NCBI GenBank assembly: GCA_017958015.1
Contig: JAGDDM010000181.1
Location: forward strand, 1-31,049
Direction of reading: 5' to 3'
Length of the DNA: 31,049 nucleotides
Source of the DNA: Abditibacteriota bacterium
Lineage (GTDB): Bacteria; Armatimonadota; UBA5829
Shown here: positions 7,490-19,648 of the stretch, one piece after another
Numbering within the stretch: position 1 is the first letter of the stretch
Layout of the letters: every line of letters begins with the position of its first letter
The notes under the pieces: model-generated
What the model was told of the DNA's origin: nothing
What the model saw: only the letters and a program-made list of their open reading frames with translations
Database searches by the model: none
Position numbers and translations under genes: made by a program

Positions 7490-10400
7490 ATGGCAGTAAA
7501 ATCGAAAAAAACCCTTTACACGGCAATAAGCGTGTTGGCCCTCGCGGGGCTTATCGTCTCCGGCGCTTTTACCGATACCTTCTGGCAGTCCTATTGTTTC
7601 GACCGGTTCCACACCGGCCAGAACAACGACGCCAACCATATCAAAAATCCCGAGACTTTGGACCTTGTGTGGGTGTTTCCCCGGGACGTGAGCACCAAGA
7701 GCTCCCAGGTGGTGGATAACGTGAACGGACGCGCCACCGGCAGCTGGACCGTCAGGGACAGCGAAGGCGCCTACATAAGCGACGAGGACGCCGAGGCCCA
7801 GGAAGCGGAAGGAATCGAAAATCCCATCGGCAACTTCAGCTACACCGCGGCCTTGCCCAGCGACAGTACCAATCCCGACAAGCCCTTCACCTGGACTTTC
7901 AGCGTCACCGCCGACATGCTGGCCAACACCCACTTCTATAAGATTCAGGTTTGGATTCCCGCTCTCACCGAGGAAGAACAGCTGGATTTGGGTTACACTT
8001 TTTCCCAAAACGCGGTCTACACCGTGAGAGACGACTACGGCGAAAAAACCTATTCTTTCAATCAGCGTGACACCGGCGGTTGGCAGGAGCTTACCTACGA
8101 AGCTCTCCGCATAACGAGACCGGGCGCGTACAAAGTGACTCTTTCCGCCATTACCGGCGATAACTTCAATCCCGAGGCCGACAGCGGCGAATCCCCCTCC
8201 ATAGCGGTTGCCGCCGACGCGGTTCGCCTCGTTCCCGTCACCGGCATGGAGGTTTATTCTTCTCCCGCCAGCGGCTCCATTCCCTGGTCCACCACCGTCA
8301 CCTACGGTTTGGGCGACGGGGAGGGCAACGCTCAGCAGACGGAAACATACAGCACGGACGCTTTGCCGGTTGTCTGTGTGGGCACCGTTGAGCCGCCCTT
8401 CGGCAACGGCATGGCCTCCATCAACTCCGGCGCGATTTACTGCGTCAACAGCGTAACTCCCATCAACCAGACCGCCGCGAGCAGCTCCAAGAAAGGCTTC
8501 TTCGACGCTCTCTCGGAAAATCTGGGCACATATATATGGCGTTATCCCGCGGCTAACCCCGACGACAGAGACGAACTTGACGGTCCCGTTATGAACGGCG
8601 TCTATTCCTCTCCTCTCGTTGACACCAGCCACCCCGGCAGCCCGGTTGTGTACGTATCCGCTCAGGACGGCCAGATTTACTGTTTGGACGCCGTAACGGG
8701 CGAGCGGATTTGGTCCGGCCCCGGCATCACCATGGGCGAAAACTCCGCCTCCACCAACTACGAAGGCACCTGGGAAACCGTCAGCGGCGTTGACGAGTGC
8801 TTCGGCGGATCTTATAAGTGGGCCGCCGGTACCACGGAAAACGACAACGTGGCTTCCGTAACCTGGAACTTCGCGGAAAAACTGGACACGAGCATGGTGA
8901 GACAGCCCGGCGACGCCGGCGTCGCCTATGAGGTCTACGTGTGGATTCCCAGCAATAACGGCACCGGCGTGACCCAGTCCGCCAACTATACCGTCACCTA
9001 TCAGGACGCCCAGGGCAATCCCGCCACCGACAACGTGAAGCTGGATATGAGCACCTACAACTTCTCCGGTAAATGGCAGCAGTTGGGCGGCTCCTATTTC
9101 AACGTTCAGAGCGTAAAACTCACCAACAAAACATCCGACGGCGGCAAGGTTTTCGCCGACGCGGTTAAGATTGTTCCCGCCGAGTGCGGCGTCTTCGGAT
9201 ATTCCTCTCCCATTACCGATGTAAGGGACGACGGCACCGGTGTTTCCACCAAGGTATTTGCCTGCACGGCCTCCGGCAGAGTCATCTGCATGTCCGCCAA
9301 CGCGGCTGAAGAGGGCATCGGCAAAACGGAATGGGCCTGCCCCAAACTGAGAACGAAAGCCGTCATCGAGGAAGAGGATGACTACACCGAACGGGGCTTC
9401 GGCTCCGTGGGCGGCAGTTTGGCCTACACCTCCAACGGCAACTACATCATCGGCAGCGCCATACAGGTGGGCGCGTATGAGGATGTCAGCCTCTTCTGTA
9501 TCGACACCGAGGGCAACCTCAAGTGGAAAGTGGGCGGCGACTACGGATTTACATCATCGCCCACCATCGGCGCCGACGGCAACATCTATATCGGCGACAT
9601 CGGCGGTTATTACAGGTGCTTCAGAATGGCGGACGGCAGTGAACTGTGGTCCAACCCCGGCACATCGGGTTATGCCGAAGGTCTCAGCCCCATTCCTCTG
9701 GGCGCTTTCAGATATTCCACCAGCGCTTTCGGCATCGCCAAGTCCCCCGCTTACAGCGGCGGAGATTTCCGCACGTGGATAGGCTCTTCCGACGGCAAGA
9801 TTTATTCCTTCAAGATAAATGAGGGCCTCTCCGAGCACAGAATGTACACGGAATACAACGACGAGGGCGAACAGAAATCGGTTCACAACGCTCCCCCGAG
9901 ATACGTCGAACCCAACTTCTATTCCGCCATCGAGGGTTCCGTGGCCGTGACGGGTCTCAATCCCGGAAACGTCACTACCATGTACGTGGGCGACATGAAC
10001 GGCGTTCTCCAATGGAGAAACGCCGCCCACGGCACATCTTCCGATACGGTTGATGTTATAAACAATGTGGGCAAGTGGAAATACGACGGCTATCAGACCG
10101 ACGGATTCCTCTTCTCCTCCCCGAACCTTACCACCGTTACCGCCGATATGGCGGCGGCCAATGTGGACTGGGTCTACATCGGCGGCTCCGACGGCAGAGT
10201 CTACGCCTTCTCCGACGAGGAGGGCGCCTGGGGCGGACACTGGCACGGCGGCCAGTGGCCCTTCGACGGCGAGCCCGGCGACAGAAAAGTTTCCTCCCGC
10301 TCCGCGGTGGAGACGGACATTCAGTTCGACATATTCAGCAAAGACTTTGCCCGGGCTTCCGAGTACGGCGACCCGGATCCTCATACAAATGACTGCTATC

Positions 10401-13400
10401 AGCTTCCCGGCAAGACCGTTACCACCCAGTTCGGCAACACTTACAACGACTGGATTCTTTCCCAGAAGATGAAGCAGCCCGACGTAACGATTAAAGAGGG
10501 CGGCGAGTATGAGCTCGAAAACGCTCAGGCCATCAACAGGGCTCTGAAGGAAGCGGCCACCGAACGGAGAACAAAGAACAACGTCTTCGGCGAGGCCAAG
10601 AGAACTCCCAACGGCGGTCAGGTGTACTTCGAGTGGGGCGAAAGGATTAACGTTATCCTTTGGAACATGCCCGCTCTGGAGGATCTTTACGGCGATAACA
10701 ACGCCTCCAGACGGAACGCCATAAGATTCCTTATGACCAACGGCAGCGGCGGCACCAGCGCCGGTTCCCAGCTCTCCTTCGCGGGCAACATCAGACAGCT
10801 TAAAGAATATCACATTCTTTCCAAGGAAACCGCCTCCGCCCAGAACGGAGAGGGCGGAACCACCGTAAGCGGATTCAAGAGACTTACGTATAAGAAATCC
10901 GACGGCGAAAACGTCTATGTGAAGCGGTCCTACGCCGTGGGCGAGATTGAGATCAACGCCACCGGCAGCAAGCCGCCCACTCCCGGTCCCGGCTGGGTTT
11001 TGGTGGCGGAAGTCCGCCAGCGCAGAACCGGCACAAGCAGCCAGAGCAGCAGCTTCGAGTTCGTGCGCATTCCCATCGCCAGGCTCAAATACAGCGGCGG
11101 CAAACTCATTCCGGTTGCCATAGACAACGACGGCGACGGTGCCGATGACGTGTTCAAAGAGGCCAACTTGGGTATCAACAACCCGCTGGCCATCAGACCG
11201 GACAGCACCGTCAAGAAAGACTGGATCGCTTGGCCCGACGACCTGAAAAAGCCCAACAGAGACGACGACGAAGCCCACTACAACGGCAACTCCGTTGAGG
11301 AGACCCTCAGCGACAACCGCAGAGCCCTCCGCACGGACAAACTGCCGGTGGTTGACCTGGGCGACGTTCAGCACGGAACCACCTCCGGCGAGGGACTCCT
11401 GGGCGTTATGGACAGAAGCGCCGTGGGCTGCAAGATTACCCGCCACACCGGCGGCTATCCCATTACCGAAAAACTCAACAACTTCAGAATCGGCAGATAC
11501 GACTTGGAGTGGGGCGGCGGCGCCGACGCCATCACCGCCTGCGGCGGAATCAGATTCCCCTGGGAACAGGGACCCGGTTCCGACGACTACCCGGACATCT
11601 ACGTCACCGCTCAGAACTACCGGAAGATGACCGACGACGCCAATCCTTCCGTGGGTGCCACCACACTGCCTTCCGTGCTCCTCAGGAGAGCCACCGGCAG
11701 CGGTTGGGACACCCAGTATCCGGAAGCGGTCAACAAGGTCACCGGTACATCTCCGGTTCTCCGCTCCGAGAAGGTGCTTGTCACCGTTGATGTGCCCAAG
11801 TATCAGCCCGCCAACCAGACCGGTTACGCCCACAAGATGCCCGCCTTCATCGACTCCAACAAGAACGGCAAGTTCGAGGACGGCAACACCATCCTGGGCA
11901 GACCCGGCACATATCAGGAAGCTTACAGACGGTTCAGAGTCTACCTCACCGTTCCCGCGGACCCGAGAATGGAAGTCGAGGAGCAGACCGTGGACATCGG
12001 CAGAGTTCCCCACGGTTTGGGCCTTGAGCTGGACAACTTCGACGCCTTCTGCTCCGACCCGGACGTTCAGCAGTGGTTCAAGACAATCACCGTCAAGAAC
12101 ACCGGCAACGTGAACCTTCGGAATCTGAAGGTGGCCGGTACGGATTTGTACGCCACTTCCACCAATACCGTTTTCCCGCTTTCCGGCAAGGGTATTACCA
12201 GTTCCCTGGATAAGGGCGACAGATATATGAACGCCGGCAAGTTCCCCTTCCGCTCTCAGGACGGTCGGGGCGCCGACATCGGCTACACTCTCACCAAAGC
12301 CAGAGTGAACAGCCCGGATCCCTCGGTTATGTCCATTCCGGACAGACGGCGCTGGGATATGAACTTCAACGGCACCGTGGATCGGTCCAAGAATATTCTT
12401 TCCGATTTGGGTTGGGCCTGGGACGCTCCGCTGCCCATTAAGGTCAGCGTCAAGGTTCCGCTGGGTCAGTCCACCGGCTCCTACATGGCTCCCTTCCTCA
12501 CCGTCTTTTCCGACATCGACGGCGACGGAGTTGTGGACAGAACCGAGCCCTACGCCAATCCCAGCTTCGACCTCAAGGTGAACGTTCGGGAATCCCGCCT
12601 CACCGGCGGCGTATCTCCCATTACGCTCCCTCAGATCGATCAGGAACTGACGCCTCTCAAGGTAAACGACACGGCTCCCGCGGCCTTCAAGGACGCCAAG
12701 ACCGGCGACGTTCACCTGTTCTGGTCCGGCAACAGACAGCCGGGCGGCAACTATCCGGACTTCACCGACGCGAACAGCGAGGCGCTGAAGAAGTTCGCCT
12801 CCGCGCCTTGGTTCATCAACCACGCCAGACTCCATTGGGTTTCCGGCACCGGTTGGTCTCCCTACAAGAAGACCGGCGACGATGCCTCCTGGTGGGCTCC
12901 CCACAAGACGAACGGCAACACCGTATTCGACTTCGGTTCTCAGTGGCCGGATCTGCTTATCGACAACGACAACCTGTCCATCCTCAAGTACGAGGGCGAG
13001 AACATGGTTCACCATACGGACCCCTACATCACCGTCAGCGAATCCAACGAAAAGGAAGCGTGGATGACCTGGACCGGCAGCATCGCGCTGGAAGATGAGG
13101 ACCTGGACACCGTAACAAACGAAAACAGAATATTCTACGGCAACATAAGCGACATATCGTCGAACACCACCATTCCGGTGCGCTCCATTCTTCAGGACCC
13201 GTATTCCCTGAAGAAGTCGCCCACCTTGGCGGTTTACGACAACACCATGTGGGCTATGTGGCAGAGCGGCAACGGCAGCAGATGGTCTCTGCAGTATTCC
13301 GTGAATCCCGTAAACGGCCACCCGGAGAAGAATTGGACCACCGCCAAGACTCTCCGCACCCCGGACACACTCACCTCCGTGGGTTCGCCTTCCGCCATAT

Positions 13401-14740
13401 ACCACAGATATACCGACAACAAGGGCATGATGGACGTTGTCTATTCCGGCATCGCCGCCAGAACGAACAACTCCGACGTAATGCTCACCAGGTATTACAC
13501 CGACTATAACAACAACGATTGGGCGCCGGACAAGATCGCGCTGCCCATGCCCAGAATCTTCGCCGAGCGGCTCACCAGAGACACCAAGTACGGCTTCTTC
13601 ACTTCCAAGCATATCGCCTGGAAGCGGCCCGGATTGGGCAACGACGCCGTGGTGGACAACAGAGGCGGTTACGACGTAACATCCGATACCGCGGACTATC
13701 CCTACGTCTACGTGAAGTTCCCCGCGGGCTATCCGAAGCCCGGCGGCGGCAAGCTCAACGCGGAAACTTGGATCAGCGCCACCGACGGCACCGTTAAAGG
13801 CGCTTCCAACGAAAACGGCAAACCCATAGATCCCACCTTCGACAACGAAGCCGGCGTCTATGTGTACAAGTACGACGAGAAGAGCCTCGCCACGGACCTC
13901 CTTGGCGAAATGCTCATCGACTACGCCGCGGGCATCCTCCGGTTCACGGAACCCTTCCACGAGGTTCGCTCCGACGACGAAGTTCTGGCGCCGGAAGTCT
14001 ACGCGGACTACACGCCTCAGACTTGGCGGCTCACCACCGGTCTGGGCGCCGACAACTCGCCTATGGCCTTCATAGAGCGGGGCGGTCCCTACACCAGCAA
14101 GTACTCCGTGGTACGCCCGGGTCTGGGTTCCGGCTTCAGAAGCGGCGACCCCGACGTTGACAGACTTTGGGTCCTGTGGAGACGGGCCGACAGAGCCGGC
14201 GACAACGGCAGCATCTACTATACCTCTTACAGAATGGGTATAGACCTGGCCGAAGTCTTTATCGGACAGTCCGGCAACTCATTCTACGTGAACAAGGGCG
14301 TTCCCGCCATTCCCATGAACGAGGACGGCACCGTATCCGACGCGGCCAACCTCACGATAAGCGGCAACAGCATGTCCTGGGAAGTGGACCGCACCGGCCG
14401 GAAGATCTTCTTCACCACCGCCGACGAGCGGGTACTCTCCATGCGGGAGACTCCCTACCAAACTCCCACCGACGGCATAAGAGTCAGCTACAAGGACATC
14501 GACGGCAAAACCGTGTCCTTCACCGCCCGCGACATCAGCTGGATTAAGGAACTGCCGGAGCAGGCAATGCCCACCGAAGGCAACGTGAACGAGGGAAGCA
14601 TCTACGGCTTCGCCGACTTCGACTACGAGGGCGCGAGCGCCTCCGATCCGCTGCTCTCCTCCAAGATATGGATTTTCTGGACCAGCACCCGGAGCGGCAC
14701 CTCCGACCTCTATTGGCAGACTCTGAGTCCGAGATTCTGA
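7490..14740 (+). CDS. Giant secreted protein (2416 aa): PQQ-type propeller with two golvesin/xanthan-lyase CBM-like inserts, Ca-binding loops, Ig-like segment and C-terminal TolB/BNR-like propeller; PilY1-like adhesin candidate
   Basis: RBS AGGAG 7477-7481 and ATG 7490. Signal peptide MAVKSKKTLYTAISVLALAGLIVSGAFT. PQQ motifs WQSYCFDRFHTG, VYVSAQDGQIYCLDAVTGERIW, SSPTIGADGNIYIGD and VYIGGSDGRVYAF. Two inserts of the form YxVxVWIP...A.YTV...W..L...ADAV.xVP (about 7710-8236 and 8730-9179). ITVKNTGNVNL Ig-like strand. C-terminal FWTSTRSGTSDLYW. Confidence 0.8.
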   Translation: MAVKSKKTLYTAISVLALAGLIVSGAFTDTFWQSYCFDRFHTGQNNDANHIKNPETLDLVWVFPRDVSTKSSQVVDNVNGRATGSWTVRDSEGAYISDEDAEAQEAEGIENPIGNFSYTAALPSDSTNPDKPFTWTFSVTADMLANTHFYKIQVWIPALTEEEQLDLGYTFSQNAVYTVRDDYGEKTYSFNQRDTGGWQELTYEALRITRPGAYKVTLSAITGDNFNPEADSGESPSIAVAADAVRLVPVTGMEVYSSPASGSIPWSTTVTYGLGDGEGNAQQTETYSTDALPVVCVGTVEPPFGNGMASINSGAIYCVNSVTPINQTAASSSKKGFFDALSENLGTYIWRYPAANPDDRDELDGPVMNGVYSSPLVDTSHPGSPVVYVSAQDGQIYCLDAVTGERIWSGPGITMGENSASTNYEGTWETVSGVDECFGGSYKWAAGTTENDNVASVTWNFAEKLDTSMVRQPGDAGVAYEVYVWIPSNNGTGVTQSANYTVTYQDAQGNPATDNVKLDMSTYNFSGKWQQLGGSYFNVQSVKLTNKTSDGGKVFADAVKIVPAECGVFGYSSPITDVRDDGTGVSTKVFACTASGRVICMSANAAEEGIGKTEWACPKLRTKAVIEEEDDYTERGFGSVGGSLAYTSNGNYIIGSAIQVGAYEDVSLFCIDTEGNLKWKVGGDYGFTSSPTIGADGNIYIGDIGGYYRCFRMADGSELWSNPGTSGYAEGLSPIPLGAFRYSTSAFGIAKSPAYSGGDFRTWIGSSDGKIYSFKINEGLSEHRMYTEYNDEGEQKSVHNAPPRYVEPNFYSAIEGSVAVTGLNPGNVTTMYVGDMNGVLQWRNAAHGTSSDTVDVINNVGKWKYDGYQTDGFLFSSPNLTTVTADMAAANVDWVYIGGSDGRVYAFSDEEGAWGGHWHGGQWPFDGEPGDRKVSSRSAVETDIQFDIFSKDFARASEYGDPDPHTNDCYQLPGKTVTTQFGNTYNDWILSQKMKQPDVTIKEGGEYELENAQAINRALKEAATERRTKNNVFGEAKRTPNGGQVYFEWGERINVILWNMPALEDLYGDNNASRRNAIRFLMTNGSGGTSAGSQLSFAGNIRQLKEYHILSKETASAQNGEGGTTVSGFKRLTYKKSDGENVYVKRSYAVGEIEINATGSKPPTPGPGWVLVAEVRQRRTGTSSQSSSFEFVRIPIARLKYSGGKLIPVAIDNDGDGADDVFKEANLGINNPLAIRPDSTVKKDWIAWPDDLKKPNRDDDEAHYNGNSVEETLSDNRRALRTDKLPVVDLGDVQHGTTSGEGLLGVMDRSAVGCKITRHTGGYPITEKLNNFRIGRYDLEWGGGADAITACGGIRFPWEQGPGSDDYPDIYVTAQNYRKMTDDANPSVGATTLPSVLLRRATGSGWDTQYPEAVNKVTGTSPVLRSEKVLVTVDVPKYQPANQTGYAHKMPAFIDSNKNGKFEDGNTILGRPGTYQEAYRRFRVYLTVPADPRMEVEEQTVDIGRVPHGLGLELDNFDAFCSDPDVQQWFKTITVKNTGNVNLRNLKVAGTDLYATSTNTVFPLSGKGITSSLDKGDRYMNAGKFPFRSQDGRGADIGYTLTKARVNSPDPSVMSIPDRRRWDMNFNGTVDRSKNILSDLGWAWDAPLPIKVSVKVPLGQSTGSYMAPFLTVFSDIDGDGVVDRTEPYANPSFDLKVNVRESRLTGGVSPITLPQIDQELTPLKVNDTAPAAFKDAKTGDVHLFWSGNRQPGGNYPDFTDANSEALKKFASAPWFINHARLHWVSGTGWSPYKKTGDDASWWAPHKTNGNTVFDFGSQWPDLLIDNDNLSILKYEGENMVHHTDPYITVSESNEKEAWMTWTGSIALEDEDLDTVTNENRIFYGNISDISSNTTIPVRSILQDPYSLKKSPTLAVYDNTMWAMWQSGNGSRWSLQYSVNPVNGHPEKNWTTAKTLRTPDTLTSVGSPSAIYHRYTDNKGMMDVVYSGIAARTNNSDVMLTRYYTDYNNNDWAPDKIALPMPRIFAERLTRDTKYGFFTSKHIAWKRPGLGNDAVVDNRGGYDVTSDTADYPYVYVKFPAGYPKPGGGKLNAETWISATDGTVKGASNENGKPIDPTFDNEAGVYVYKYDEKSLATDLLGEMLIDYAAGILRFTEPFHEVRSDDEVLAPEVYADYTPQTWRLTTGLGADNSPMAFIERGGPYTSKYSVVRPGLGSGFRSGDPDVDRLWVLWRRADRAGDNGSIYYTSYRMGIDLAEVFIGQSGNSFYVNKGVPAIPMNEDGTVSDAANLTISGNSMSWEVDRTGRKIFFTTADERVLSMRETPYQTPTDGIRVSYKDIDGKTVSFTARDISWIKELPEQAMPTEGNVNEGSIYGFADFDYEGASASDPLLSSKIWIFWTSTRSGTSDLYWQTLSPRF

Positions 14741-14891
14741 TTGTGAAAAGCGAGCTCTGAGCTCAAGGTTCCGATAGAGTCGGCTTTTCGCCGCGGATTC
14801 TATGCTCTCCTCCAAGATTCGGATTTTCCGGACGAGCACCCGGAGCGGCACCTCCGACCTCTACTGGCAGACTCTCAGCCCTCGGTTCTGA
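14652..14891 (+). repeat. Diverged direct repeat: 14652-14740 (gene 3' end including stop) repeated at 14803-14891
   Basis: Ungapped manual alignment of 89 nt shows 10 mismatches. Copy 2 reads in frame from ATG 14802 as MLSSKIRIFRTSTRSGTSDLYWQTLSPRF*, against LLSSKIWIFWTSTRSGTSDLYWQTLSPRF* in the gene. Confidence 0.95.
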
Positions 14892-14942
14892 GGTGAAAAT
14901 CGGGGAAAGAAACAGGGGATAAAACCGAAAAAATGAATACCG

Positions 14943-14976
14943 AACCGGCCGTCCGCAAGCCGCGGAAGGCCGGTTT
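14943..14976 (+). terminator. GC-rich hairpin downstream of the giant-protein operon; possible terminator
   Basis: AACCGGCC-g-TCCGC-aagcc-GCGGA-a-GGCCGGTT. The U-tail is only about 3 nt, so the terminator call is weak. Confidence 0.4.
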
Positions 14977-15031
14977 AGGGGCATTTTCACGAAATTTTCC
15001 GAAAAAAAGCCGATTTTTTTTCGAAAAGGGC

Positions 15032-15129: not shown

Positions 15130-16551
15130 ATGGCTTCCAAAAAAATACCTTCCGCGGTTCTCGGTCTTGACATAGGCACCACCGCGATTAAAGCCGTTGA
15201 AGTCAAGTACATCAAAGGCAAGCCCGTTGTTACCGGAATCGTTTCGGCGGATTTGCCCGAGGGCACTTTTGACAGCGAGCTCATCGTAAACCCCGAGGAG
15301 CTGGGCAAGACGGTTAAGGAGCTTTTGGCATCCAACAACATAAAGACGAAAAACGTTGTGTGCGCTCTTTCGGGTCAGACAAAGGTTATCGTGCGCGTCG
15401 TGGAAGTTCCCAAGATGACGAAGAAGGAGCTGGACGACACCATGAAGTTCCAGGTGGAATCCAACGTTCCTTTCCCCGCCAACGAGATTGTGAAGGATTA
15501 CGAGATAATCGAAAATCCCGACGCGGACGTGAACGATCCCAACTACGATGTCCTCTTCGCCGCCGCGCAGCAGGACCTTGTTAACTCCTACATGGCCATG
15601 CTCAAGTTCGCCGGTCTCAAGATTGCCGCTCTGGACGTGAACACTCTCGCCGTGGGCAGAGCCGTTCTCGAATCGGAAAAGAACGAAGAGGGCAAAACCG
15701 GCATTATCGGCGTTGTGGACCTGGGCGCCTCTTTCAGCAGCTTCGGCGTCTTCGAAAACGGCGACCTTAAATATCCCAATCCTCCTCTTTCCGTGGGCGG
15801 CAACAGCCTCACCGCGGAAGTGGCTCAGATTTTGGGCGTGGAGAAGGACGAGGCGGAGGAATCCAAGAAGCAGTACGGCTACGCCGACGCGGAAGTTTTC
15901 AATATGCTCCTGGGCATCGCTCAGGAAGCGGAGAACGAGGAAGAGGACTTCGACTTCAACGACGCTTTCTCCACCTTCGAGGAACAGACTCAGGCCGTGT
16001 CGGAAGCCCATGACGACGAGTTCGGCGACTTGCCGGGTCTCGGCGGAGGTCTGGGCGACATTCTGGGCGGTTCCGTGGATGTTGCGGAATCCGAAGAAGA
16101 AGCCGCTCCCGCGGTGGACAATCCTCTGGATTTGGACGCCGGCGAGACCGAGGCGGAGCCTCTCTTTGATTTGGGCGACAAGCCCTTCGGCAACGACAAC
16201 GATACGCCCTTTGCCACCGACGATATAGATCCCAATTCCCTTCAGGGCAAAGTGCTTACGGCCATTGCCACTCCTCTTATCGATTTGGCCAACGAAATAA
16301 GACGCTCTCTTGAGTATTACAATACCCGCTACAACAAAGACATCGACAAGCTGGTCCTCTGCGGAGGCGGCGCCAATCTCGGCAAGATTGCCGATTTCCT
16401 GGTGGGTGAGCTGGGTGTGGAAACCGAAGTGGTGAAGCCCATGGCGGGTTTTGCCGTTGAGATTCCCGACCTTACCGAGCAGTACATAAACGAGATTTCA
16501 CCTTCCCTTACCGCCGCCTTGGGGCTCGCGGTTCGCGATATGGTTGAATAA
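15130..16551 (+). CDS. pilM: Type IV pilus assembly protein PilM (actin-like fold) with a large acidic insertion
   Basis: VLGLDIGTTAIKAVE phosphate-1 motif, VIVRVVEVPKM, FQVESNVPFP, VLFAAA, LVLCGGGANL and C-terminal AALGLAVR; first gene of an MNOP-secretin order. Confidence 0.93.
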   Translation: MASKKIPSAVLGLDIGTTAIKAVEVKYIKGKPVVTGIVSADLPEGTFDSELIVNPEELGKTVKELLASNNIKTKNVVCALSGQTKVIVRVVEVPKMTKKELDDTMKFQVESNVPFPANEIVKDYEIIENPDADVNDPNYDVLFAAAQQDLVNSYMAMLKFAGLKIAALDVNTLAVGRAVLESEKNEEGKTGIIGVVDLGASFSSFGVFENGDLKYPNPPLSVGGNSLTAEVAQILGVEKDEAEESKKQYGYADAEVFNMLLGIAQEAENEEEDFDFNDAFSTFEEQTQAVSEAHDDEFGDLPGLGGGLGDILGGSVDVAESEEEAAPAVDNPLDLDAGETEAEPLFDLGDKPFGNDNDTPFATDDIDPNSLQGKVLTAIATPLIDLANEIRRSLEYYNTRYNKDIDKLVLCGGGANLGKIADFLVGELGVETEVVKPMAGFAVEIPDLTEQYINEISPSLTAALGLAVRDMVE

Positions 16552-18964: not shown

Positions 18965-19648
18965 ATGTTTAACGGAAAACGATGCTTCTCGCTTATTATG
19001 GCGGCCTGCGTTATGGGCGCGGCGGCCTGCGGAGCGGTTTACGCTCAGGCGGCAAAGACCACCGACGACACTCCGGTGACGCTGGATCTCAAGGACGTTG
19101 ACGTCAGAGCGGCCATCGAGTCTCTTTTCAGGGGCACCGGCAAGAACTTCTCCATCGGCCAGGATGTCAGCGGTAAGATTCCCAGCCTTTCTTTCCGCTC
19201 CATTCCTTTCAGCCAGGCTCTGAAGAACCTGCTGAAGACCGCCGGTCTGGTTTACCGTGTGGAAAACGGCATCTACATGATAAGTAAGAAGCCGGACACC
19301 TCCGCTACGGCCTACGCCACTCCGGATGTCACCGCTGCGGTTGCGGGCGTTGAGGAAACCGCCACCGAGGAGAAAATCATCGACAAAATCCCTCTCAATC
19401 ACATGGGCGCCACGGAGCTTTTGTCCATCATGAACAAGGACAGCCACGACTACGGCGACTATGATCCCTTCGATGCTTTCGGCTCCCTCATGGGTAACAG
19501 CAGCGGCAGCAGAGGCGGCGGCAGCTACGGCGGCGGCAGCAGAGGCGGCGGCTACGGCGGAAGCAGCAGAGGCGGAAGTTACGGCGGAAGCAGCAGAGGC
19601 AGTTACGGCAGCAGCCGGAGCAGCGGCAGAAGCAGCAGAAGTTGGTAA
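18965..19648 (+). CDS. Stand-alone STN (secretin/TonB N0) domain protein with Gly/Ser/Arg/Tyr repeat tail
   Basis: Signal peptide, then VTLDLKDVDVRAAIESLFRGTGKNFSIGQDVSGKIPSLSFRSIPFSQALKNLLKTAGLVYRVENGIYMISK (N0 pattern), then IDKIPLNHMGATELLSIM (start of a secretin N-domain), then a low-complexity tail. Confidence 0.8.
   Translation: MFNGKRCFSLIMAACVMGAAACGAVYAQAAKTTDDTPVTLDLKDVDVRAAIESLFRGTGKNFSIGQDVSGKIPSLSFRSIPFSQALKNLLKTAGLVYRVENGIYMISKKPDTSATAYATPDVTAAVAGVEETATEEKIIDKIPLNHMGATELLSIMNKDSHDYGDYDPFDAFGSLMGNSSGSRGGGSYGGGSRGGGYGGSSRGGSYGGSSRGSYGSSRSSGRSSRSW
19508..19612 (+). repeat. Four imperfect tandem coding repeats, SRG(G)(G/S)YG(G)(G/S)
   Basis: Units 19508-19537, 19538-19564, 19565-19591 and 19592-19612, each starting AGCAGAGGC and containing TACGGC. 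Confidence 0.9.

Follow-up and report, generated by a model that had tools for sequence, protein, structure and literature searches.

At rhs loci, a new 3' end is joined within a conserved stretch of the gene and the old end is shunted, silent, downstream (Jackson et al. 2009, PMC2935791); C-terminal displacement is described for rhs, CdiA and type VI secretion system effector loci, and the relics it leaves can stack (PMC2935791; Poole et al. 2011, PMC3150448; Kirchberger et al. 2017, PMC5361080). For rhs tips, a single crossover via a circular intermediate has been proposed (PMC2935791). According to Hill et al. (1989), as cited in PMC13626634, integration of e14 at icd restores the gene and leaves a C-terminal pseudogene, icdC, and excision at icd/icdC yields a chimeric icd with several synonymous changes (PMC13626634). 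Two further described processes are homology-facilitated illegitimate recombination in natural transformation (PMC3240628 and references there) and insertion with long target duplication (Furuta, Abe and Kobayashi 2010, PMC2853133). Here we analyze a stretch of 31,049 nucleotides (nt) from an Abditibacteriota bacterium (assembly GCA_017958015.1, contig JAGDDM010000181.1; hereafter, the window), which is the whole of the longest contig in a 299-contig, 2.09-Mb metagenome-assembled genome (MAG), and in which a giant gene is followed by a second copy of its own last 33 codons. The geometry is common to rhs-type displacement and to icd/icdC, and the event is of a known kind, real but ordinary. On balance, we judge it somewhat probable that the second copy is a non-functional former, orthologous version of the last 33 codons of the giant gene, displaced by a 151-nt patch.

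By direct reading, positions 14652-14740 match positions 14803-14891 at 79 of 89 nt without gaps and with the stop codon TGA included, the second copy of this match lying 62 nt beyond the stop of the giant gene. A codon-by-codon comparison finds nine differing codons, seven of which are synonymous (ATA/ATT, ACC/ACG, TAT/TAC, CTG/CTC, AGT/AGC, CCG/CCT and AGA/CGG, 8 nt in all), while the other two both change from TGG in copy 1 to CGG in copy 2 (W>R). These observations, together with a TAG at 14775-14777 that lies in frame upstream of copy 2, reproduce those of an earlier note prepared from the sequence, which had also traced weak similarity about four codons further upstream. The upstream similarity is indeed present, and the homology is somewhat longer than the note described: its onset is at 14639 and 14790 (GCC ... 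GAT ... xTG; ASDPL vs. AADSM), giving 33 codons, and it perhaps continues for ~10 nt 3' of the stop (GTGAAAAGCG vs. GTGAAAATCG; alone not significant, 117/500 shuffles). The full repeat thus defined comprises about 102–103 nt of homology with 15 of 102 nt differing (~15%), and in this extent copy 2 carries one P>S change in addition to the two W>R changes. The excess of synonymous change, on which the earlier note had made its interpretation depend, is significant at about P = 3e-4 (1.5e-4 to 5e-4 for at most two amino-acid changes from 10 random substitutions in 29 codons). The elements of the repeat are as follows.

Positions 7490-14740, forward strand: giant gene of 2416 amino acids (aa), with a signal-peptide-like N-terminus and PQQ-type propeller and Golvesin_C domains (list of open reading frames (ORFs), Pfam).
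Positions 14639-14740, forward strand: copy 1 ('alpha'), the 33 codons that form the functional end of the gene, with TGA.
Positions 14684-14712 (partner 14835-14863), forward strand: 29-nt identical core, with no differences between 14683 and 14713.
Positions 14741-14789, forward strand: spacer of 49 nt between the stop of copy 1 and copy 2.
Positions 14755-14774, forward strand: possible third copy ('gamma'), much decayed, of the final 20 nt of the gene, 15/20 matching, its stop now CGA.
Positions 14790-14891, forward strand: copy 2 ('beta'), 33 codons and the stop TGA, lying in frame +1 with respect to the gene.

The start of the spacer (14743-14752, GTGAAAAGCG) resembles the flank 3' of copy 2, and its right ~36 nt, past the first ~12 nt, have no counterpart in that flank. 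At the right junction (TTTTCGCC|GCGGAT), the end of the spacer meets copy 2 at a 4-nt microhomology, CGCC (read as AGCGCC|TCC vs. TTCGCC|GCG), and the left side is seamless within the homology. The local alignment of the possible third copy ends exactly at the stop position, with a score reached by 10–15 of 500 shuffles. In the 2.09-Mb assembly the repeat exists in these two copies only, and a genome scan of 3568 stop-to-stop ORFs of at least 150 aa returned it as the sole strong case of a gene tail repeated downstream (53/60 nt, the next best being 42/60).

The same arrangement is found in other assemblies. A cluster of PilM proteins (10 members) served as the handle by which the same junction was fetched from twelve other contigs and aligned; contig L010 was found by a metagenome pattern scan. 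Both copies are spanned on single contigs by L012, L014, L016, L021 and L022, and L020 begins inside copy 1; over the covered part of 14639-14891, all six are identical to the window base for base. The two-copy contigs include NCBI MAGs as well as ENA assemblies built with k = 141 (MEGAHIT). Among sequencing runs, 12/12 sampled 31-mers of 14705-14845, covering the spacer and both junctions, occur in runs of three different studies, and at least 0.75 of the sampled 31-mers occur in eight further runs (at least eight studies in total). A strain-chimera misassembly could be suspected in view of the 299 contigs of the MAG, of the 151-nt spacing, which is near a read length, and of the Logan contigs of four runs, which break within the repeat, none bridging 14744-14775. 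Nevertheless, the identical sequence across both copies in five other assemblies (k = 141 contigs among them), a longest identical stretch of 29 nt, below any k used, and the presence of every sampled 31-mer in three runs of three studies leave this explanation with a negligible probability, and as far as contigs can show, an assembly artefact is excluded. The earlier note had proposed looking for a counterpart of copy 2 elsewhere, and two kinds were found: copy 2 itself in other assemblies, and a copy-2-like functional gene end in a sister clade.

Alignment of these contigs resolved three structural alleles of the junction.

Form T (two copies): the window, L012, L014, L016, L020, L021 and L022; arrangement as in the window.
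Form H (151-nt deletion): L013, L017, L018 and a Logan contig from run X4; the left part of copy 1, the 29-nt core and the right part of copy 2, followed by the downstream flank.
Form L (sister clade): L010, L011 and L019; copy-2-like functional end, TGAAAA, 26-nt relic of copy-1 type.

In all observed 151-nt deletions, the crossover lies inside the 29-nt identical core (in the Logan contig of run X4, the joint is 14683>14835 with 29 shared letters), which yields a chimeric gene end with the encoded peptide unchanged. Because the ten differences between the copies partition cleanly to the left and right of the core, this comparison shows that form H derives from form T by recombination in the core, and not the reverse. 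Form H occurs on at least two flank haplotypes (23 differences between L013 and L017, as compared to 9–11 between L017 and several form T contigs), and the deletion is therefore either recurrent or has been moved by recombination. Contig breaks suggest that run X1 holds both T and H forms; L015 starts in the core and is hence uninformative on form.

The sister clade differs from the clade of the window at ~5% of flank positions (~95% identical), with a synonymous divergence (dS) of 0.226 in the gene body. Its functional end is copy-2-like (GCG, ATG, ATT, ACG, AGC, CGG, with both TGG codons intact), followed at the stop by TGAAAA, then by the relic GGCGGACTCTGAGTCCGAGATTCTGA (25/26 identical to the copy-1 tail of the window) and by the same downstream flank. 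This 26-nt relic has the copy-1-specific states AGT and AGA, and the possible third copy in the spacer of the window stands at the place of this relic, behind a similar junction. As a separate observation, the three sister-clade contigs have behind the stop a 32-nt tandem arrangement in which tail and short flank occur twice; the ACT CTG / ACC TTG states of the relic co-vary with those of the functional tail in L010, which hints at short-patch conversion between copies just 32 nt apart. A further observation concerns L022, in which positions 1-1258 include, ~1174 to 817 nt upstream of the repeat, sister-clade-like bases over ~350 nt of the giant gene body; the gene call is split into two ORFs. 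This metagenome contig either is chimeric or records recombination between the clades within the gene.

The sister clade allows the two copies to be compared by distance. Over ~23 synonymous sites, copy 2 differs from the sister functional end by 5 (L011), 7 (L010) or 9 (L019) synonymous differences, as opposed to 11 for copy 1 against each of the three. Among 764 sliding 33-codon windows in the last 2.5 kb of the gene body, the mean is 4.3 synonymous differences and the maximum 10, so that none reaches the value of copy 1 (binomial P = 0.002 for the excess). The excess divergence from the sister clade begins at 14642, the preceding stretch (14530-14641) having 2 mismatches. Three-way arithmetic assigns 6–8 synonymous changes (~2 expected) to the copy-1 branch and 2–4 to the copy-2 branch, that is, the longer synonymous branch belongs to copy 1, the constrained copy. 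When changes in the core of the match are polarized with the sister clade, five of ten fall on the copy-1 branch, all of them synonymous, and the copy-2 branch has three synonymous and two non-synonymous changes, a pattern which fits neutral decay (P = 0.10–0.24). Thus, the earlier view that copy 2 had diverged under protein-level selection holds in part: the all-synonymous changes agree with it on the copy-1 branch, but the branch of copy 2 itself is accounted for by neutral decay. Given the copy-1 distances, the onset at 14642, the longer copy-1 branch and the unmatched spacer, copy 1 together with the spacer (14639-14789) appears to be the odd piece in an otherwise orthologous backbone.

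In the reading that we favour, a 151-nt patch (14639-14789) would have been spliced in directly upstream of the old gene end, bringing the same 33 codons in a more diverged form, together with a stop codon and 49 nt from the flank native to the patch. From then on the gene would terminate within the patch, and the old end would be left untranslated in the 3' untranslated region (3' UTR), before a terminator-like hairpin. One-sided homologous plus illegitimate recombination with DNA of a related strain could produce the seamless left junction and the right junction at 4-nt microhomology; a single crossover with a small circular intermediate is an alternative route that would leave the same junction pattern. 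Afterwards copy 2 would decay (W>R twice, P>S), and in some wild strains recombination across the 29-nt core would remove 151 nt, restoring a single chimeric, fully functional end. We infer the direction of displacement with moderate confidence, and likewise infer the recombination mechanism and the loss of function of copy 2. Of the three explanations offered in the earlier note, this corresponds to the first, the displaced 3' end of a former allele, and it is the best supported, with copy 2 standing at ordinary orthologous distance from the sister end. The hairpin is located as follows.

Positions 14945-14973, forward strand: strong GC-rich hairpin with TTT directly behind it (folding 14930-14990 gives -31.2 kcal/mol, z = -4.8).

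The transcript of the giant gene probably ends at this hairpin, which is conserved over 14930-14990 in the sister clade, with changes in the loop, and was not flagged on the + strand by a simple terminator scan. Since the terminator-like hairpin comes after copy 2, the latter is probably contained in the 3' UTR of the giant gene.

A side-by-side comparison with the described systems reveals substantial likenesses as well as differences. As in Rhs/CdiA arrays, the attached and displaced pieces have a common homology block (~103 nt, with a 29-nt identical core), copy 2 is silent and out of frame after a stop, and there are possible stacked relics at 14755-14774 and in the sister clade. Unlike in those arrays, both copies encode the same conserved 33-residue peptide rather than alternative tips, no immunity gene is present (pilM follows as the next gene), and the patch amounts to only 151 nt with no functional diversification. 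The likeness to e14/icd is that an imported copy of the 3' end completes the functional gene, with an orphan C-terminal fragment downstream, and that recombination between the copies (L013, L017, L018 and run X4) gives a chimeric functional gene with synonymous differences; the differences are that no element or integrase lies between the copies, which are only 49 nt apart, and that no crossover in the core produced the two-copy form, each copy being of its own type on both core sides. Homology-facilitated illegitimate recombination is matched by one seamless junction, the other at the microhomology CGCC, and by the addition of short foreign-looking DNA. With regard to a donor origin, copy 1 is unusually diverged, but the copy-1 type also occurs in the sister clade and the searches turned up no donor; the locus of this uncultured organism includes type IV pilus genes. 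Finally, insertion with long target duplication likewise places an insert between direct repeats of ~100 nt, whereas here the insert is of 49 nt and without a gene, and the repeats differ by 15% with an excess on the coding copy. For the latter reason, the two copies are not two halves of one duplicated target.

Several points weigh against the displacement of copy 2 as favoured here. The sister clade keeps a 26-nt relic of copy-1 type, and the copy-1 type is therefore not simply foreign to the species complex; indeed, because this relic has AGT and AGA, both sequence versions are old or have been exchanged between clades. The functional and relic roles are reciprocal in the two clades, which one displacement event cannot explain. 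The possible decayed relic in the spacer sits where that of the sister clade does, and copy 1 with the spacer would therefore be the positional counterpart of the sister locus. The distance arguments all draw on 33 codons, homolog and metagenome searches yielded no donor lineage that combines the copy-1 type with this spacer, the left crossover is not visible (seamless in homology), and the apparent non-function of copy 2 is itself deduced from its sequence. Unequal crossing-over alone, considered as a single history for both clades, was rejected, as it cannot swap which version adjoins the downstream flank. Both arrangements require gene conversion, excision and re-integration, or independent events, each of which needs extra assumptions.

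Some of these same points suggest a mirror image of the favoured history, in which copy 1 and the spacer would be native, and copy 2 would be the ragged left end of an incoming fragment that was never the functional end here. The spacer relic and its junction (AAAAG-CGAGCTCTGAG) resemble the AAAAGGCGGACTCTGAG of the sister clade, suggesting positional equivalence to the sister locus; the copy-1-type relic kept in the sister clade is in line with this, and the one-sided junction pattern is symmetric and fits both directions. Copy 1 would then, however, be the true ortholog, although no other 33-codon window in the last 2.5 kb has diverged as far (11 vs. a mean of 4.3). Homology to the downstream flank and to the pil genes would have anchored the incoming fragment, and these are at ordinary divergence from the sister clade. 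In addition, a second replacement would be needed in the sister clade. Taken together, the mirror-image history seems to us rather unlikely.

An in-situ tandem duplication over the stop codon would leave copy 1 to accumulate only synonymous changes under selection and copy 2 to drift, and would itself be neutral because the first copy keeps the stop. It is compatible with direct repeats set 151 nt apart, with the exclusively synonymous core changes on the copy-1 branch and the neutral fit of the copy-2 branch, and the 32-nt tandem of tail and flank in the sister clade looks like such a duplication. Nevertheless, past its first ~12 nt the spacer (its right ~36 nt) lacks homology to what follows copy 2, so that the locus is not a plain tandem duplication. 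Moreover, the longer branch is that of the constrained copy (6–8 synonymous changes vs. ~2 expected, with 2–4 for copy 2), and AGT and AGA recur in the sister relic, so that they predate or cross the clade split. We therefore regard a duplication in situ as unlikely.

The second explanation of the earlier note, a conserved recombination anchor, has one element that is borne out, as the copies do recombine in nature (core deletion hybrids), but there is no sign that a swapping system is maintained. A cassette or anchor system that preserved two versions of the gene end for swapping alleles of the giant surface protein would account for the persistence of both versions in both clades with reciprocal roles and for the repeated recombination of the copies in the wild, and would be in keeping with the sister-clade-like patch in the gene body of L022 and with a locus that adjoins type IV pilus genes. 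On the other hand, both versions give the same peptide, so that swapping changes nothing; the relic is decaying at invariant residues and is lost without replacement in the deletion strains; and no recombinase is nearby, while L022 may be a chimeric metagenome contig. Such a system appears very unlikely. It is also quite improbable that two old end versions have been kept across a speciation-level split in reciprocal roles as a landing pad for allele exchange of a pilus-associated surface protein; if this were true, C-terminal displacement would be operating outside polymorphic toxins.

With respect to function, copy 2 looks dead, and nothing in its sequence suggests otherwise. A functional copy 2, whether as a 29-aa peptide from ATG 14802-14804 or as an RNA element of the 3' UTR, would draw on its open frame of 29 codons with ATG and stop and on its identity in seven contigs. 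This identity is uninformative, as diversity is low everywhere (2 variable sites per 198 nt upstream and 1 per 238 nt downstream), and the identity among two-copy contigs was accordingly rejected as a signal of constraint, the flanks being equally invariant. The ATG corresponds to the in-frame Met codon of the copy-2-type gene end in the sister clade, from which it is inherited; no Shine-Dalgarno-like sequence or other ribosome-binding site was seen before it by reading; and Rfam gave no match at or near the gathering score over copy 2. Both W>R changes affect near-invariant residues, and copy 2 is dispensable, being missing from form H and from the sister clade. The translated 29-mer proposed as the third explanation in the earlier note is disfavoured on these grounds, and any function of copy 2 seems highly improbable. 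Read-through or extension of the giant gene into copy 2 was rejected, since copy 2 is in the +1 frame with stops between.

The residues lost from copy 2 belong to a C-terminal motif of the giant protein, which ends ...LLSSKIWIFWTSTRSGTSDLYWQTLSPRF*. Homologs of this protein have 2350-2780 aa and are annotated Armatimonadota, and copy 1 encodes a motif that is phylum-wide (SKIWxFWTSTRxGxSDLxWxTxSP). In the form SKIWVFWTSTRxGxSDLFWETxSP, it is found in 51 of 52 homologs of 1930-2776 aa, with the last ~25 residues almost invariant; the first Trp is conserved in 50/51 and the second in 51/51 of the motif-bearing homologs, and both are the residues changed to Arg in copy 2. The DNA of the terminal motif matches at 76–80% even between families. 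Separately, the terminal block at 14651-14737 resembles a PD40-type propeller strand.

Several other candidate origins were tried and rejected. A diversity-generating retroelement does not fit the base pattern (among the 10 differing sites, A occurs at only 3 in copy 1 and at none in copy 2), and no reverse transcriptase domain was found in the window proteins scanned, small ORFs not all being covered. A prophage or island integration scar was rejected, with just 49 nt between the copies and no integrase; integrase, transposase and reverse transcriptase were all absent from the 14 neighbouring proteins scanned. A small mobile hairpin element was considered for the spacer, whose ends form a 7-nt inverted repeat (GAAAAGC...GCTTTTC), but the spacer does not outdo shuffled sequences in folding (z = -1.06). 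The spacer sequence occurs nowhere else in the genome, and scattered 13-mer matches to GGCTTTTCGCCG look like ordinary coding composition. Neither a DNA search nor tblastn found a paralogous source of copy 1 in the same genome. In the search for closer relatives, the nearest match of the full-length protein was 53% identical and matches of the C-terminal fragment were at most 46% identical; exact look-ups of the giant protein and of PilM returned no record, and 40 related GTDB genomes yielded the distant conserved motif only. In the genome scan, three unrelated ORF tails (C12:159-681, C99:2386-3358 and C147:702-1245) have a best downstream self-match of 36–42/60 nt at a common offset of 138 nt, which may represent a dispersed repeat with a 138-nt period.

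The giant gene is the third of three large genes, the other two coding for large propeller proteins, upstream of pilMNOPQ-like genes, and the first gene downstream of the repeat is the following.

Positions 15130-16551, forward strand: pilM-like gene (Pfam PilM_2, 9.5e-50).

Further pilus-assembly-like genes, a secretin and then housekeeping genes come after it. At 18965-19648, adjoining the full secretin upstream, there is a 227-aa protein with STN and secretin N0 domains and a Gly/Ser/Arg/Tyr-rich repeat tail. The window sequence is present in bovine and other gut metagenome runs.

By itself, the second copy matters little, as a small and probably neutral scar in a 3' UTR. Its value is rather that wild rumen populations display one junction in three structural alleles, which makes this locus a well-documented natural example. 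It also provides a caution for annotators and population geneticists, in that a cluster of synonymous differences at the 3' end of a gene can stem from recombination with a neighbouring relic and not from point mutation, the same caution that was drawn from icd/icdC in Escherichia coli (PMC13626634). Overall, and read in the direction that we favour, the alleles together trace how a recoded copy took the place of a gene end, how the original, left stranded behind it, decayed, and how the scar was erased across only 29 identical bases.

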